Shown here piece after piece: positions 6,001 to 64,000 of a DNA stretch of 64,000 nucleotides (positions are counted from its first letter, which is position 1; the number at the start of each line of letters is the position of its first letter). The DNA comes from a bacterium (GTDB lineage Bacteria; UBA8248; JACPRG01; G963555815). Where the stretch lies: assembly GCA_965261595.1 (NCBI GenBank), contig CBDHDG010000007.1, forward strand, positions 1,319,030-1,383,029, in the 5' to 3' direction. The position numbers were made by a program.

Positions 6001-9000
6001 GATTGCTTCCCCGATTTGCTCGGTCAGGGGATACACACTGCGTCGTCCGCCCTTGAGCGTCACAGTCAGTGTTCCAGCCCTCCAGTCGACATCATTCAGT
6101 GTCAGGAAGGCGATCTCACTGGCACGCAGTCCAAGCCGGGCGAGCAGCAGCAAAATAGCGTAGTCGCGGCGTCCTACGGGCGTGCTGCGGTCCACGCTTG
6201 TCAGCATCTTCTGTACCTGGTCGGCTGCAATGCCTCGTGGAACCGATGTCATGGCCCAACCGGCGACGGTCGGGACCTGGTGAGCCAGGTCCGGCATCCT
6301 CGCGGCATGGGCATGCACATAACGCAGGAAAGCGCGTAACGAGCCGGTCACCGACTTCATGCTCCCCCGGCTGGTCAATCGGGCCGTCTCATGGCGCACA
6401 AACGCAATCAGATCGCCAGCGTTCAGCTGCGACAGCACCACCTCTCCGTTACCAAACCGGTGCTGGAGAAAATTGCGGGCTCGGATGACGTAATTCACGA
6501 TGGTGCCGTCGGCCAGATCACGCTGCTCGCGCAGATACTGCGCGTACTTTTGTACACAGCGTTCAGCCGGTGTCGGGGGACGGACGGGTTCCTCCGGGGA
6601 GATCACGCCCACGCATCGCAAGTAATCCATCAGATGCCTGAGAGAAGGCCGGGCGCTCAGTTGTTGAGAGCGCAGGCTCCTTGTCCGCAAGTATTGAGTT
6701 ACGTCTTCAGACGACAGGCTGGGCAGCTCGATTTGCTGCTGCTCAAGCCATTCGCTGAAAAGAACTATCCGTCGAAGCTGTTGATGGATCGTGTCGTGAG
6801 AATACTTCCGGGCGTTCAATGCTTCTGCAAGTCCCCTCAGCCACGGGACCAGCGGCCCGACTGGGCGTCGTTGCAAGACAAATTGGTCGTTGATCGGATA
6901 CCTCATAGCAGGCTCCTTTCCCCTCAGGGGTTGTTGTTGGAGCCTTTACTATGTCGCGTAATTGGGGGCGCCGATGGCGTACTTCTGAAACCTTTTCAAT
7001 CAGATATCACCACGCATTCCTGATTACGCCACATAGGCCGGTTCGCGAAATAGTGGTGCAACTGGGGGCCGCCGCCGGGGACAGGGAACCGCGAGCCCTG
7101 GGGCGAGCGCATCGACATCAAGATGGCGTGAGTGTGGGACGGTGCGCCGTTTCCCGCCCTGTCCTCCACTTGGTCGGCATGTCCATTCACCGGCCGGTTT
7201 CCCGAACGCGCCGATCCCCGCCGCGAGACCGAGGCCGGGCGGCGGCCGGGCGAAGCGCGGGCGCGGAGGCGAGGCAGGCGCCATGCCCCGGCCCCGCGCG
7301 CCGTCCCAACGGAGGAACCGCCATGACCGATACCAACATCACGGAGGAGCACCGACGGGCCTTCTCGGCCCTGACCAGCGGCGACTGTGAGAACCTCGCT
7401 CTCTTTTCCTGCTTCTGTGACGGCCGGCCCACGGCGGCCATCGCCGCGGTGACCGTCCACCCGCCGGCCCACGAAGACGGCGAGGCGGAATACCGCGTCA
7501 GCCCGCTGTTCATCGGCCTCACGCCGGACATGATATTAACCGACCATGACGGGCGCGAGGCATGAGCGCCGACGTCATGCGCCGCCGGTCTCCGGCCGAT
7601 CCGGGCCGCATCCCGCACATTCCCTTGCCGCCGGAATGCCGGGAGATGATCCGGCGCGGCGCGCTCTTCGCCCTGAACCACAGCGGCGGCAAGGACAGCC
7701 AGGCGATGACGATCCTTCTCGCCCGGATCGTCCCCCGGCAAAACCTTCTGGCGGTTCACGCCCCGCTCGGCGAGGTGGAATGGCCTGGCACCATCGAGCA
7801 CATCGAGGCAACGATCCCGGGCGGCGTGCCCCTCGTTTTCGCGCCCGTCGCTTCCGGCAAGACGCTTCTCGACAGGATCGAGGAACGGGGCCGGTTCCCC
7901 TCGGCGTCCGTTCGCTGGTGCACTTCCGATTTCAAGAGATCGCCCATCGAACGCGAGCTACGGCGTTATCTCAAGGCCCATCCCCGCTTCGGCAGATGCG
8001 TCGTGAACTGCATGGGGCATCGCGCCGACGAAAGCGCCGCCCGCGCCGTGCGGGCCGCCTGGAGACGCAACGCCCGCAACAGCAAGGCGGGCCGGGAGTG
8101 GGTGGACTGGCTTCCGGTCCATGCCCTCTCGACCGCCGACGTGTTCCGGGTCATCCGCGACGCCGGCCAGTCGCCGCACTGGGCCTATGCGGCCGGCATG
8201 ACGCGGCTCTCTTGCAGCTTCTGCATCCTCGCGTCCCGCCAAGACTTCCGCACCGCGGCGCGGCTCCGTCCGGCGCTTTATCGCCGCTACGCCGCGCTCG
8301 AGCGGCGCATCGGCCACACGCTGTCGCCGTCGCGAATCCCCCTGCCCGAACTGACGGGCGTGCCGGCCGAGGCCGGGCAAACCCCCTTCGGAGGAGTCTC
8401 GCATGCCGCTCGATACCGCCGTGACCGAGCGCGCCGCCCGCATCCTGATCGAACGTGATCCGGGTCCAGGTGACCGGCTCGACGCCTTTCTGCTGCTCAC
8501 CGGCCAGGAGTATCTGTGGCGCCGCCGAGACCGCCTCGGCGCCGACTTCGGCGAGGCGGTCCGCATGTACGAGCCGCGGCCGGCCGGCGCCTCCCGAGGC
8601 CCACGTCGCTCCCCTTCTTCGGCGCGGTCAAGCGGCGGCGCATCGAGCGTCGCCGGGAAGTCGCCGTCTGGCTCGCGGGCCGCTTCCTCGACTGGCTGTA
8701 CAGCCCCGATGGCCGGGGCCGCGCTTCCGACACGGACTGGCGTCCGGGCCCCAGCCTGTCGATTGGCCTGGAGCTGCCGTACGAAACGGCCCTGAAGGAG
8801 CCTCCCCGTTCGCTTCCCCATGCCGAGCGTCGCGTGACCGAGCTCGCCCTCGCGAACGTGGTCGACCCCGGCGTTGAGGGTGTCGCCCGTGAGCCGCACC
8901 GTTGACGGCACGCCGGCGCCGGCGCCGCTTCCCCGCCGAGCCGACCTGCCGCCCGGCATCCTCCCGCAATCCGCCTCGCGGTCCCGCGTGCGCGCCCCCG

Positions 9001-63000: not shown

Positions 63001-64000
63001 AGCGCAGCACCGAGCCGACCAGCGCGGCGCCCACCGCCAGCGCGGCCGCGAGCTGCCCGCCCGTGCCCGAGACGATGTCGGTCACCGTGCCGAGCGGACT
63101 CGAGAAGGTCGTGTCCGTCGAGGCCCAGGCCGTCTCCAGGCTAACCAGCGTCAACACGAGCGCCGGAGCCGCAACCCGATGCGCGCTGCCCACGACGGCT
63201 TTGAGGGCGTTCCTGGTAAAGGAAGGTGTTCTCATCGCGCCGTCCTCCGCCCGGCCTCGCCGTCGTCCGAGGTCGAGATCCGCCGCCGCGCCGAGGCCCA
63301 GGTCTCCAGATCGGCGAGCAGGTAGCGCACCCGGGACCCGAACCGGTGGAACACCGGTCCCGCGCCACTCACCCGGTAGCGGTCCAGCGTCCTCGGCGAG
63401 AGGCCCAGCCATGCGGCCGCCTCCCGTGTGCTCAGGTAATGCCTGCCGTTGTTGTCGTTCATGCGCGTGTCTCCTTCTCGTTCGAGGTCGGCCCCGGACC
63501 CGGCAGGCGGGACCGGAGCGGTGGATGGACCGGGCAGGATCGCCCCGGCGGATGGGTTCGCTGCGTCCGTCACCCCGGCGCGGATGGCTCGGGCCTCTTC
63601 CGCGCTGGCCTGGGCCGCCATCCAGGCGCGCACCCGATCGACCGTGGTCAGCCGCGGCGACACTCCCCGGCGCAGCCTTCCCATGAAGGACGGATTGCCG
63701 ACAGCCTCCAGGCCCAATACCGAGAGCTTGGTCCCGGTCACGGTCAGGAACGCCTCGACCTCGCGCCGGAACACAGGGCCCAGAGGCGGATGCCCCATGA
63801 AGACCAGGACCCGGTCCGCCGTCGCCAGCCGCACCGAGCGTCCCCGCATCTGGGAGGCCACGAAACCCGGGTCCCCGAGGGCCTCCAGGCCGAAGCGCCG
63901 GGCGCTCATGCCGTGGCGTACGCGCCAGGCCGCAACGGTCCGGCGCAGGCGCTCGTCGAAAGGCATATCGGAGGGGGTGCCGGGCGTTATCATGTGTGAG

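Follow-up and report, generated by a model that had tools for sequence, protein, structure and literature searches.

The window, a stretch of 64,000 nucleotides of bacterial DNA, probably holds a chromosomally inserted conjugative element with a MOBF relaxase and an F-type type IV secretion system (T4SS), whose front module occurs twelve times in the genome and whose swappable slot carries cargo that is often defensive; transfer and defence are predicted functions. Defence-carrying hotspots of integrative conjugative elements (ICEs) and runaway ICE amplification are already known. What is new is that a single backbone family reaches 4-13 copies per genome across several species, and apparently across several phyla, each copy having different immune cargo at a codon-bounded slot. 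An earlier note on this DNA had proposed such a family, chromosomal, multi-copy and with a variable, often defensive slot, and this stands on the Pfam matches, the junctions and PADLOC; its wording on twelve elements, on mostly immune cargo and on recombinases does not. Positions without a prefix are window coordinates, and the prefixes C2 to C7 denote contigs of the same genome.

Organization of the element

The element is predicted to run from a ParB-like gene through helicase, SSB, Toprim, DUF4326, YAcAr and NikA-like genes to the slot, and then, on the opposite strand, through TrwC, TraD and the Tra genes. The gene order of the earlier note, which ran from ParB-like to Tra, was matched by Pfam. 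The backbone features are as follows.

5863..6906, minus strand: XerD-like tyrosine recombinase (Pfam Phage_integrase, profile positions 3-101 of 172 only; NCBIfam XerD 3.6e-27)
6951..8458, plus strand: 204-aa ORF and PAPS-reductase-like protein, start of the left arm (Pfam PAPS_reduct 1.5e-7)
8902..11409, plus strand: ParB-like protein, 835 aa (Pfam ParB_N 3.7e-4; NCBIfam PRTRC ParB 1.8e-16)
11502..14227, plus strand: 580-aa protein, 117-aa protein, then DUF2958 (1.9e-43)
14387..18871, plus strand: strawberry-notch helicase (AAA_34 and Helicase_C_4), 1,494 aa (Pfam 4.3e-107, 3.4e-90)
19052..20147, plus strand: two conserved small ORFs, 89 aa and 141 aa long (tblastn against the other copies)
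20247..20663, plus strand: SSB (Pfam SSB 1.8e-22; NCBIfam ssb)
20660..21871, plus strand: DUF7146/Toprim protein, primase-like (Pfam 3.1e-33, 5.8e-22)
21871..22833, plus strand: DUF4326 protein and 176-aa ORF (Pfam DUF4326 4e-13)
22849..23859, plus strand: YAcAr (SLOG, DUF2493), 336 aa, the hallmark gene (Pfam 1.3e-20)
23844..24263, plus strand: 139-aa ORF (comparison with the other copies)
24263..24452, no strand: conserved non-coding region with repeats, candidate operator or oriT (2 motif matches against 0.11 expected)
24453..24836, plus strand: NikA-like ribbon-helix-helix gene, class I allele, last backbone gene (Pfam NikA-like 4.3e-4; PDB NikA 2ba3, E 0.021)
40841..43858, minus strand: MOBF relaxase-helicase, TrwC and AAA_30 (Pfam 2.4e-84, 5e-48)
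43855..45912, minus strand: coupling protein TraD/TrwB (Pfam TrwB_AAD_bind 4.2e-137)
46467..62890, minus strand: F-type mating-pair genes TraG, TraH, TraF, TraN, TrbC, TraU, TraW and S26 peptidase, TrbI, TraC, TraV, TraB, TraK, TraE, TraL (Pfam)
63232..63993, minus strand: HTH_17 protein, 253 aa, at the head of the tra operon (Pfam)

The recombinase at the left edge has lost its C-terminal catalytic part to an IS3-family element at 4735-5914, and the two proteins of 6951..8458 are 84-98% identical in amino acids to counterparts at C4:917 kb and C6:1320 kb. The 580-aa and 117-aa proteins gave no family match in Pfam or NCBIfam. The helicase is possibly fused to a methyltransferase, its N-terminal part giving a weak Erm-like methyltransferase match (residues 143-235, 2.2e-5, NCBIfam), while the DUF7146/Toprim protein resembles the C-terminal part of TraI_TIGR (2.8e-18, NCBIfam). 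At the equivalent of 22534, four other copies bear an IS110-family insertion (IS110 transposase 2.6e-33).

The relaxase, with a TrwC domain at residues 14-293 and AAA_30 at 462-654, belongs to the MOBF class, and the mating-pair genes are of type F by their Pfam matches (F_T4SS_TraN 2.9e-34, TraU 1.6e-74, TraW_N 4e-8, TraH 8.5e-99, TraF 4.6e-63, TrbC_Ftype 2.5e-21). Relaxase and coupling protein, a complete mating-pair gene set and a chromosomal location are ICE traits that the element displays. A recombination breakpoint at 44174 has the near-identical T4SS block on one side and diverged relaxase types on the other. The window copy contains four private 1-nt insertions (54108, 55289, 60155, 60618), which, if real, break TraU and TraB and also affect the S26-peptidase/TraW stretch; the T4SS ORFs of the copy at the end of C2 are open (TraB 417 aa, TraU 333 aa, TraC 845 aa). 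Past the end of the contig, C2 and C6 display a divergent S24 LexA/CI-like repressor and a DUF433 gene, and a second variable region, rich in restriction genes, is found to the right of the T4SS. The predicted order beyond the Tra genes is HTH_17 gene, repressor, DUF433 and second variable region.

Copies in the genome

A megablast search of this genome with the window as query placed the SSB–Toprim–DUF4326–YAcAr core (window 19640-24145) at 12 sites, the number previously claimed; the 11 besides the window have 90.7-98.4% nucleotide identity to the window copy.

C3:33145-38586 and C3:331202-335191
C4:33184-37688 and C4:430381-431929 (partial)
C5:25741-30723 and C5:1069661-1073756
C6:1019927-1025962, C6:1274160-1279280, C6:1326868-1339594 and C6:1545292-1550680
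C7:68222-72355, besides the window copy

YAcAr is open and full-length in all 12 copies (97-100% amino-acid identity), and in 10 of the 12 the coverage of Toprim is at least 97%; that of SSB is at least 84%, likewise in 10. The earlier count of twelve conjugative elements thus holds for the cores, but not for the transfer apparatus. As had been stated, nine of the 14 contig ends lie in T4SS DNA, of 99.7-99.97% identity: in C2, C5 and C6 it is present at each end, in C3 and C4 at the start, and in C7 at the end. The T4SS block is entered by only five junctions on the left and four on the right, which gives a minimum of five copies with a T4SS. The sequence is contiguous from ParB to T4SS in two copies only, that of the window and C5:1049385-1119735, and for seven of the 12 cores the relaxase or T4SS is absent nearby or present as fragments only. 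The copies beyond the at least five with a T4SS are IS-eroded relics. The near-identity of the T4SS block could in part be a collapsed assembly consensus.

The cargo slot

In class I copies the slot begins where the NikA-like gene reaches its stop codon; in class II copies it begins within the final codons of the homologous gene, some 970 bp past YAcAr. It ends 0-160 bp past the stop of the relaxase TrwC. These borders are sharp in 20 copies, 12 in this genome and eight in the relative G006. The content of the window's slot is listed below.

24837..40840, no strand: cargo slot of the window copy (single-copy DNA apart from IS; border alignments)
24833..34122, plus strand: Druantia type III DruH (1,082 aa) and DruE (2,014 aa) (PADLOC DruH3 2.3e-41, residues 14-1073; DruE3 E = 0, 1,900 bits, full length)
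35258..39049, no strand: two inverted 1,404-bp IS3-family copies (35258-36661; 37646-39049; Pfam rve, HTH_Tnp_1)
36694-37758: 5' part of an OLD/Gabija-like ATPase gene, between the two IS3 copies (Pfam AAA_15)
39059..40075, plus strand: 3' part of an OLD-family ATPase-TOPRIM nuclease gene (Pfam AAA_15, OLD-like_TOPRIM; PADLOC Old 1.8e-12)

DruH and DruE are adjacent with a 4-nt overlap, the arrangement of a type III Druantia system, and the start of DruH overlaps the NikA-like stop. This NikA-like/DruH junction is also spanned by contigs from two other studies, and an independent 10.3-kb contig shows 0 differences from the slot.

In all 12 copies the slot DNA is single-copy apart from IS. The view that every slot holds different genes is largely upheld: the 12 contents differ, yet C6a and C6d have at least their first 2.4 kb in common, and C3a and C4b their last 2 kb. 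Besides Druantia III with OLD, the cargo found by PADLOC and related searches comprises PDC-S06/TmtA/HEC-09; a GTPase conflict system with a type I RM system and PrrC; a methyltransferase with Mrr and PDC-S15; a RecD-like gene; DrmD/TmtA/PDC-S68; and, in one slot, a complete I-E CRISPR-Cas system with AbiE and PDC-S11. The PADLOC values given earlier recurred (DruH 2.3e-41, DruE 0, DrmD 2.3e-115, TmtA 2.1e-48, PDC-S68 1.5e-250, PDC-S06 3.9e-75, RecD 2.5e-41).

Whether the cargo is mostly immune, as had been proposed, depends on the unit. Per slot the statement holds, with strong PADLOC matches in nine of 12 slots as first scored and strong named defence genes in seven (S01, S02, S03, S04, S05, S07, S09) after matches beyond the likely slot were removed; S10 is uncertain, S06 and S11 are candidates only, and S08 and S12 gave no defence genes in PADLOC or in Pfam of the slot ORFs. 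Per ORF it fails, with strong matches in 34 of the 191 ORFs of the slots and in 12 of the 150 control ORFs from nine random 20-kb regions (odds ratio 2.5, p = 0.010; odds ratio 2.1, p = 0.045 once matches beyond the likely slot are removed). Complete defence clusters occur in two of the nine control regions, and the excess of the slot over this defence-rich background is modest, about 2-2.5x. The slot is a defence hotspot in its conserved flanks, its variable content and its per-ORF excess, but by locus the comparison (nine of 12 slots against four of nine control regions) gives p = 0.20.

Exchange between genomes

The pattern recurs in relatives, in keeping with the earlier note. YAcAr is present in 15 of 41 related genomes (the window's own counted), 4-13 matches occur in each of eight genomes that consist of 1-4 contigs, and closed genomes of another genus also combine many copies with different cargo. 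Defence matches lie downstream of YAcAr at 11 of 18 loci of other genomes (E <= 1e-10) or seven of 17 (E <= 1e-20), and copies within one such genome carry cargo differing from each other.

Between G000 and G006, which belong to two genera, the element DNA is 90-97% identical and syntenic chromosomal genes are 68-80% identical. Copy C5b and G006 copy B have 12 kb in common at non-syntenic places, including the I-E CRISPR-Cas system, at 92.5% identity. At the level of DNA, these alignments demonstrate a recent exchange of elements between G000 and G006. The 90-97% identity across genera also lends indirect support to the predicted excision and transfer. In the YAcAr tree the 12 genes of this genome form one clade (SH-aLRT 95) and seven of the eight G006 genes another, and the segment flanking the C5b slot shows 97% identity to a copy whose cargo differs, but 82% to the G006 copy that has the C5b cargo. 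Since the backbone clusters by genome and the cargo is common to several genomes, this pattern implies recombination at the slot border. More broadly, it suggests that both cargo and backbone have been exchanged, among copies as well as among genera.

Ends, integration and a candidate oriT

The tyrosine recombinases had been assigned to the element, an assignment that we do not retain. The recombinase copy of the window is cut by an IS, a second recombinase ORF begins at the stop of the copy at C7:55 kb, all three left-hand copies are damaged, and the two complete copies of the closed relative G006 have neither the ParB-helicase arm nor the left tyrosine recombinases. These genes are probably a separate tandem-recombinase element. 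Among the copies compared, no recombinase was conserved together with the backbone, and no tRNA or att repeats were found at the ends of homology; a pair of integrases is present at just one right end, in C6. The copies lie in contigs of 0.34-1.8 Mb and, in G006, in a single 5.17-Mb contig, with chromosomal genes on both sides. With no conserved integrase, att repeat or tRNA at the ends, the term integrative therefore refers to this chromosomal location only.

The NikA-like segment exists in two allelic classes, which diverge from about 289-350 bp past the YAcAr stop. The class II ORF matches NikA-like at 7.2e-5 and is homologous to class I (E 5e-5). Upstream of the class I gene, the region 24263..24452 is associated with the motif CACCGATATACG, exact at 24245 and with one mismatch at 24348, with a third, degenerate copy in the alignment and a 19-nt inverted repeat at 24306-24347. 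In class I copies CACCGATATACG is confined to this region, and locus L199 has it as well, on the upstream side of its homologous gene. Every gene between 6951 and 24263 is oriented toward this candidate site. A speculative and rather improbable reading is that the repeats and palindrome are the oriT, at which the MOBF relaxase would recombine incoming with resident copies in place of a dedicated integrase, so that the interval from NikA-like gene to relaxase would act as an integron-like exchange point for defence systems. PMC3264647 describes integration of transferred DNA by the R388 relaxase into a resident oriT copy. If true, this reading would explain why the left border is exact to the base, why one chromosome has gathered many copies, why backbones are mosaic and why identical cargo recurs in different genera and phyla. 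The repeat region is absent from class II copies that have a T4SS; a search with a MOBF nic motif gave no match, and no nick site was found.

Interpretation and alternatives

The likely explanation remains a conjugative family with a swappable slot. Two backbone units converge on the slot with their 3' ends, that of the NikA-like gene and that of the relaxase, and insertions into it would therefore spare transfer functions. Cargo may be swapped among co-resident and incoming copies through recombination in the conserved flanks, which would also homogenize the backbone within a genome. With defence systems frequent among the cargo, each copy would add a different immunity, favouring retention even of relics without a T4SS. 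By analogy with plasmid leading regions, the genes from ParB to YAcAr may provide establishment and anti-restriction functions that enter the recipient early.

An IS-ridden genome might instead have passively gathered decaying copies of a once-active element, the cargo being unrelated DNA that collected where insertion was tolerated and the defence genes merely reflecting their abundance in the genome. The genome does hold about 177 full copies of the 1,404-bp IS3-family element, with IS in or beside nearly every slot; seven cores without a T4SS, three damaged recombinases out of three, the defence-rich control regions and the per-locus p value fit such decay, and the RAGE elements of Orientia (PMC10732058) provide a precedent. 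We consider it unlikely overall; against it stand an open YAcAr in every copy, a nearly complete Toprim in 10, an intact T4SS in a copy other than the window's, elements that resemble each other across genera much more closely than the chromosomes do, borders exact to stop codons in 20 copies of two genomes, and the multi-copy, different-cargo pattern in closed genomes of another genus. A little less probable still is that the slot is an attachment site, where islands with paired P4-type tyrosine integrases insert near the palindrome and repeats after the 139-aa ORF and then decay, giving nested elements and not homologously exchanged cassettes. In G006 copy F2 an Int442/Int388 pair does stand directly after the 139-aa ORF, where the classes part at +289; a NikA-like gene is closely followed by an integrase fragment (C7:412409-412879), and integrases are found at the far ends of S08 and S09 and, as a pair, at the one C6 right end. 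In most copies, however, the cargo begins at the NikA-like stop codon and not at +289, no repeats were found flanking the cargo, and neither the S02-S07 slot ORFs given to Pfam nor those of the window slot matched Phage_integrase.

That merged strains or repeats in assembly or binning inflate the copy number is close to refuted. The contamination estimate is 5.57% and contigs break inside the element, but the core copies lie inside 0.34-1.8 Mb contigs with unique flanks and differ by 2-9%, the independent contig matches the slot, and single-contig relatives hold 4-11 copies. The eight closed or nearly closed relatives with 4-13 copies likewise argue against a binning artefact.

If the preferred reading of a conjugative family is correct, much of the pan-immune system of these organisms is interchangeable cargo on one conjugative platform. 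The slot would then be a locus for finding new defence systems, for example in the unnamed cargo of S06, S08 and S11 and at many loci in other genomes, and the family would offer a way to study how related ICEs can reside together without mutual exclusion.

Relation to known systems

Hotspot 5 of SXT/R391 is an ICE defence hotspot, like the slot here. The S24 CI/LexA-like repressor adjoins the transfer genes, presumably as SetR does in SXT/R391. SetR ties transfer to DNA damage, and the S24 repressor may by analogy do the same. The SXT family is usually single-copy, whereas many copies with different cargo coexist in this genome. Defence hotspots of Pseudomonas islands (PAPI/PAGI/LESGI; PMC12629846) also combine a conserved conjugative backbone with fixed intergenic positions of varying, anti-phage-rich content. 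The present element differs from ICE hotspots in its MOBF relaxase, in a slot exactly between NikA-like gene and relaxase, and in that no integrase or att was found.

The RAGE of Orientia and Rickettsia is described in PMC10732058 as an ICE with F-type tra genes in many mostly degraded copies within an IS-rich, rearranged genome. The likeness, an F-type ICE proliferated to many mostly degraded copies in an IS-rich genome, is one of behaviour only; the host here has a 6.2-Mb genome and class relatives labelled Nitrospinota, the copies are far fewer (12 cores), and the cargo is largely defence. Plasmid leading regions are enriched in SSB and methyltransferases (PMC11541004), and here SSB, methyltransferase-like helicase and ParB-like genes are likewise clustered in one direction. 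The rule that the transferred strand is the template would fit if the oriT lies at the NikA-like gene. Unlike leading-region islands, the variable part here carries defence and not anti-defence genes; Pfam found no known anti-CRISPR, ArdA/ArdC or PsiB gene in the window.

Plasmid pMLb of Mesorhizobium japonicum (NC_002682.1) has the same order of ParB, methyltransferase/helicase, Toprim and DUF2493, with 43-53% amino-acid identity in helicase, Toprim and YAcAr; the counterpart of the strawberry-notch helicase is annotated there as methyltransferase/helicase. This module of alphaproteobacterial plasmids reads ArdC, ParB, methyltransferase/helicase, Toprim, DUF2493. It differs in that pMLb is a MOBP/MPF_T plasmid, without SSB and DUF4326 in the module, with DinB and metabolic genes after DUF2493, and without a relaxase-bounded slot. 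YAcAr occurs on 747 plasmids, and 472 of these are typed as conjugative. With R388 and F-type MOBF systems the element has in common the TrwC relaxase-helicase, TrwB/TraD and a ribbon-helix-helix accessory gene near the relaxase; here that accessory gene is of the NikA-like kind, with as much as about 23 kb of cargo between it and the relaxase, and the element is chromosomal. The best plasmid matches of TrwC are 35-38% identical and are annotated MobF.

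Organization of the element copy in the window

The element combines complete transfer machinery of the MOBF/F type with a conserved front module (the genes from ParB to YAcAr) and cargo-slot borders that are exact to the codon. Its cargo is varied and often defensive, it has spread recently between genera, and its copies have recombined with each other. The genome amounts to 6.17 Mb in seven contigs (C1–C7), and the window runs up to the end of contig C7. The GC content of the window is 69–73% at 8–24 kb and at 42–64 kb, 60–64% between these segments and 55–63% leftward. The gene map, based on Pfam and NCBIfam, is listed here in order.

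Genes of the window copy
7562–8458, +: PAPS-reductase-like gene
+: ParB-like gene, 835 aa
+: two family-less genes, 580 and 117 aa
+: DUF2958 gene
+: strawberry-notch helicase, 1,494 aa, with a weak methyltransferase-like stretch
+: two small ORFs between helicase and SSB
+: SSB, DUF7146/Toprim, DUF4326 and a 176-aa ORF in series
22849–23859, +: YAcAr gene
+: 139-aa ORF after YAcAr
+: 127-aa gene with weak NikA likeness (Pfam 4.3e-4; PDB NikA 2ba3, E 0.021)
After the NikA-like gene: DruH and DruE (PADLOC, 2.3e-41 and E = 0)
3' of DruH/DruE: two unnamed ORFs
Then: OLD-family nuclease gene, interrupted by two inverted copies of a 1,404-bp IS
40841–43858, −: MOBF relaxase
−: TraD
−: full F-type set (TraG, H, F, N, TrbC, U, W, TrbI, C, V, B, K, E, L)
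−: HTH_17 gene

The predicted structure of YAcAr is poor (mean pLDDT 56.9, pTM 0.38); long helices at residues 97–178 and a C-terminal part of alpha/beta type are all that it presents. Among solved structures, a profile search gave no match with E < 0.35. At the left, a 129-aa ORF separates the PAPS-reductase-like gene from the ParB-like gene downstream (7562–11409), a pair that resembles those of the IbrA/IbrB type.

Borders of the slot and a candidate oriT

The borders of the slot, the cargo interval between the NikA-like gene and the relaxase, were defined by a comparison that started at the YAcAr stop and ran outward in all 12 window-genome copies and in eight from G006. G006 is a single-contig relative from the same family and another genus. 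The segment from about +289 to +970 past this stop occurs in two allelic classes. Class I, found in five copies of the window genome and four of G006, carries the 127-aa NikA-like gene, and homology ends at its stop codon. Class II (seven and three copies, respectively) carries a different small ORF, and homology ends within its final codons. The class II ORF is NikA-like as well (7.2e-5) and shows homology with the class I gene (24% over 86 aa, E 5e-5), so that in all copies the final backbone gene is of the NikA-like ribbon-helix-helix kind. On the right, homology ends 0–160 bp beyond the relaxase stop. Two regularities were rejected. An ATGA stop/start overlap of the NikA-like gene with the cargo is seen in the ORF lists for the window copy only, and a strict pairing of relaxase type with NikA-like class is broken by C4b (a copy on contig C4) and by G006 copy A.

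In the conserved non-coding stretch 5' of the class I gene, the motif CACCGATATACG is repeated and accompanied by an inverted repeat of 19 nt. The motif has two matches in the window against 0.11 expected. Among 222 loci it is limited to two kinds of site: this position, in class I copies, and a site 340 bp upstream of the homologous gene in one MAG labelled Thermodesulfobacteriota. A MOBF nic-region motif had no match in the window with up to three mismatches allowed. The repeat region, 24263–24452, is no more than a candidate oriT, because the class II copies are without it.

Slot contents

We called 306 ORFs of at least 80 aa in 14 intervals, namely the 12 slots and two orphan relaxase flanks. 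The 84 that lie in multi-copy IS were discarded, and the other 222 were scanned with PADLOC and Pfam.

Contents of the 12 slots
S01 (window): Druantia III, OLD
S02: truncated PDC-S06, TmtA-like, HEC-09
S03: GAP1-N1/DO-GTPase1/DO-GTPase2/GASH/GAAD system, then type I RM with PrrC
S04: methyltransferase, Mrr-like nuclease, PDC-S15
S05: RecD-like helicase, HEC-09
S06: candidate only, BrxC/D-like ATPase; the slot includes a gene pair of 366 and 691 aa
S07: complete I-E CRISPR-Cas, PDC-S11, AbiEi/Eii
S08, S12: no defence genes; distal parts hold transporters and metabolic genes, so the slots are short or lost
S09: DrmD, TmtA, PDC-S68
S10: PDC-S45, HNH; slot extent uncertain
S11: candidates only, NERD-NACHT protein and M78 peptidase

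The control consisted of 150 of the 158 non-IS ORFs of nine seed-picked 20-kb regions outside the elements, scored with generic ATPase and regulator matches excluded. It gave 12 ORFs with strong matches, and complete systems in two of the nine regions. Strong defence matches per ORF were 34/191 in the slots versus 12/150 in the control (odds ratio 2.5, p = 0.010), a difference that holds with the conservative slot count of 30/191 (p = 0.045). Per locus, the comparison stands at 9/12 versus 4/9 (p = 0.20). The control is not fully clean, because one of its regions shares 3.9 kb at 98% with the right flank of an element. The excess of defence genes in the slots is real yet modest, the genome being defence-rich throughout.

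The cargo of S03 opens with a five-gene GTPase-centred conflict system (GAP1-N1, DO-GTPase1, DO-GTPase2, GASH and Metallophos-GAAD) at C3:323.5–329.9 kb (extracted loci L004:7967–11927 and L003:17458–19967). An 859-aa protein with SIR2, NB-ARC/NACHT and TPR parts adjoins a core-less orphan relaxase–TraD pair (L021:17224–19803; C7:428.2–430.8 kb).

Copies in the genome and their IS load

The earlier note had counted 12 copies, and the core (19640–24145) does recur at 11 further sites of the genome, with 90.7–98.4% identity. A full-length open YAcAr gene is present in all 12, and Toprim and SSB are each near-complete in 10. The ParB–helicase arm is found at 92–97% aa identity at C4:917 kb, C5:1049 kb and C6:1320 kb, either beside or near three other cores or alone; more diverged arms lie at C7:55 kb (70–88%) and C2:48–66 kb (54–76%). 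The relaxases are of two types, with 93–100% versus about 64–74% aa identity to that of the window.

Nearly every copy is interrupted by IS. The 1,404-bp IS3-family element (HTH_Tnp_1 and rve ORFs), present in the window at 35258–36661 and 37646–39049, has about 177 full copies at >99% identity in the 6.2-Mb genome, an unusually large and recent burst. A 1.7-kb IS110-family element occupies one exact site in four of the 12 cores, equivalent to 22534 in the window and within the 176-aa ORF (C6:1022.6–1024.4 kb, or L012:3700–5350; C3:34755–36462; C6:1335628–1337335; C6:1547440–1549359). These four cores do not cluster in the YAcAr tree, and the recurrence of the position points to site-specific targeting or to spread by gene conversion. 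A unit of an IS66-family transposase and a DruA-domain (DUF4338) gene is repeated at about 10 places with 82–91% identity (window 2566–3447; L026:4444–7420), in one case inserted directly behind an element's S24 repressor gene.

The T4SS block and the ends of the element

Nine of the 14 contig ends, which the earlier note had placed in the element, fall within the T4SS block of 18 kb. Of these, five run in at the relaxase side and four at the opposite one; at least five copies therefore bear the block. Nearly all differences among these ends are private single-base indels, with substitutions at two sites only (55877 and 62792). The window copy has four private insertions (54108, 55289, 60155 and 60618); TraU and TraB are broken by them, and the S26-peptidase/TraW stretch is affected too. 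The frameshifts might be real; they are probably consensus errors at a contig end, since they are private to the window copy and the ORFs are open in the copy at the end of C2 (TraB 417 aa, TraC 845 aa, TraW 223 aa, TraU 333 aa). The TraU insertion is absent from G006 and from the other contig ends. A split TraU as a trait of all copies was accordingly rejected as an artefact of split-ORF queries, the extra base at 54108 being private to the window. Identity switches sharply at 44174, within traD. Rightward of this point, identity among all copies exceeds 99.9%; leftward, three copies drop to 78–83% over the 3' end of traD and the relaxase. The position marks a recombination breakpoint common to the C3, C4 and C5 copies.

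Past the end of the window, four copies agree in having the HTH_17 gene, a divergent S24 LexA/CI-like repressor and DUF433. Their right sides diverge after 886, 1,715 or 2,298 bp, two of the break points being explained by IS insertions. What follows is an SNF2-PLD protein in one copy, YgjP, HsdR and GmrSD in another, and in a third a type ISP enzyme, DUF4238 and two tandem P4-type integrases; the right of the T4SS is a second variable, restriction-rich region. Integrase pairs similar to this tandem (69–84% aa) occur at only three other places, counting both genomes. Alignment of the copies at the ends of homology, left and right, gave no common direct repeat, and most left ends are cut by IS insertions. 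ARAGORN placed no tRNA near any copy of the window genome, and in G006 only a tRNA-Asn 10 kb from one copy. The XerD-like recombinase left of the window ParB arm (5863–6906) is cut by IS. Its homologue at C7:55 kb has a frame change, with a second recombinase ORF beginning at its stop (C7:54300–56400), and we read the left recombinase as a separate tandem-recombinase element. These XerD-like tandems resemble recombinase-in-trio elements. Other recombinase pairs (about 29% identity) lie beside element copies at C5:1042–1045 kb and C6:1314–1317 kb.

Exchange between genomes and recombination between copies

The concern of the earlier note that a metagenome bin might have merged strains would make the copies an artefact of binning. 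YAcAr matches occur in 15 of 41 related genomes, the window genome counted, and eight genomes of one to four contigs hold 4–13 matches each (G006 10, G020 11, G021 4, G033 10, G034 11, G035 6, G036 13, G037 6), which rules this source out. In G006, copies A and D are complete (small ORFs/SSB, slot, relaxase, T4SS and S24 repressor), and no ParB–helicase arm stands beside either. Syntenic chromosomal genes of G006 and the window genome are 68–80% identical, versus 90–97% for element DNA. C5b, a copy on contig C5, and G006 copy B have 12 kb in common at 92.5% identity and at non-syntenic sites, a stretch that takes in the entire I-E cas operon; the start of the C4b cargo is common to G006 copies D and E2.

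In the maximum-likelihood YAcAr tree (78 genes, with partial matches excluded), all 12 copies of the window genome form one clade (SH-aLRT 95), seven of the eight G006 copies form a separate one (SH-aLRT 97), and copies of the second genus are intermixed across genomes. Unlike the YAcAr clades, cargo and allelic classes are common to different genomes. The slot-side segment of C5b is 97.3% identical to that of C7a, a C7 copy with different cargo, and 82.3% to that of G006 copy B, where the cargo is the same. Either the backbone was homogenised within the genome, or cargo was swapped with breakpoints at the slot border; in both cases copies recombined.

The CRISPR arrays after cas2 (C5:1084000–1086800 and G006 copy B; L041/L042) align through their repeats only, as staggered matches of about 70%, so that the spacers differ despite cas operons that are 92.5% identical. 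The slot of G006 copy A includes an ankyrin-repeat protein (L038:16415–17179), and the right end of G006 copy D has a DUF433–DUF5615 pair (L050:14052–14441), which is toxin-antitoxin-like.

A probable mechanism and known systems

The slot may be tolerated because it is placed between the 3' ends of converging units, and cargo would move by homologous exchange in the flanks. The S24 repressor could tie transfer to DNA damage, and copies may be kept because each would bring a different immunity. None of the 113 window ORFs scanned matched the TraT family, which would fit, weakly, a missing surface exclusion. All front-module genes read toward the candidate site at 24263–24452; by analogy with leading regions (PMC11541004), the module might aid establishment in the recipient.

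Among ICEs, a known example with variable defence hotspots is SXT. Such hotspots are described in ICEs and islands (PMC12629846), amplified F-type ICEs in Rickettsiales (PMC10732058) and ICE genes in sponge microbiomes (PMC12659273). The present element departs from known hotspots and amplified ICEs in its combination of features: several to 13 copies per genome, a slot with a NikA-like gene on one side and the relaxase on the other, and backbone and cargo histories that disagree. Our literature search, which covered articles without their supplements, returned general work on ICE defence hotspots and no account of this element family.

Wider distribution

A profile scan of species-representative genomes gave 530 relatives in 564 candidate stretches, of which 80 were retained. 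By the titles of the public records, some relatives at about 79% identity are labelled 'Nitrospinota bacterium', and this group probably includes contigs of two class relatives. Those at 53–77% are labelled Binatia, Thermodesulfobacteriota, several Alphaproteobacteria, Gemmatimonadota, Rariloculaceae and Pseudomonadales MAGs; those at 43–47%, cultured Alphaproteobacteria and one plasmid. The closer group keeps the order helicase, SSB, Toprim, DUF4326, YAcAr, gap, TrwC, TraD, with almost empty slots at two loci, and the distant group and 747 plasmids (e.g. pMLb) keep ParB, helicase, Toprim and YAcAr. Of the 80 loci, 45 were short, distant or from G006; in the remaining 35, ORFs of at least 130 aa downstream of YAcAr were scanned. 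As raw counts, defence matches were found in 11 of 18 loci at E <= 1e-10 and in 7 of 17 at E <= 1e-20. They include Cas9, I-B CRISPR-Cas, type I/II/IIG RM, Septu, IetAS, AbiE and several PDC families, and one 4.39-Mb genome has five loci, each with different content.

The Druantia stretch is present in assembled contigs from sequencing runs of at least three studies, and no RNA run is among those listed with it. An independent contig of 10,311 nt equals window 24227–34537 with 0 differences, and contigs of two other studies span the NikA-like/DruH junction with two differences each.
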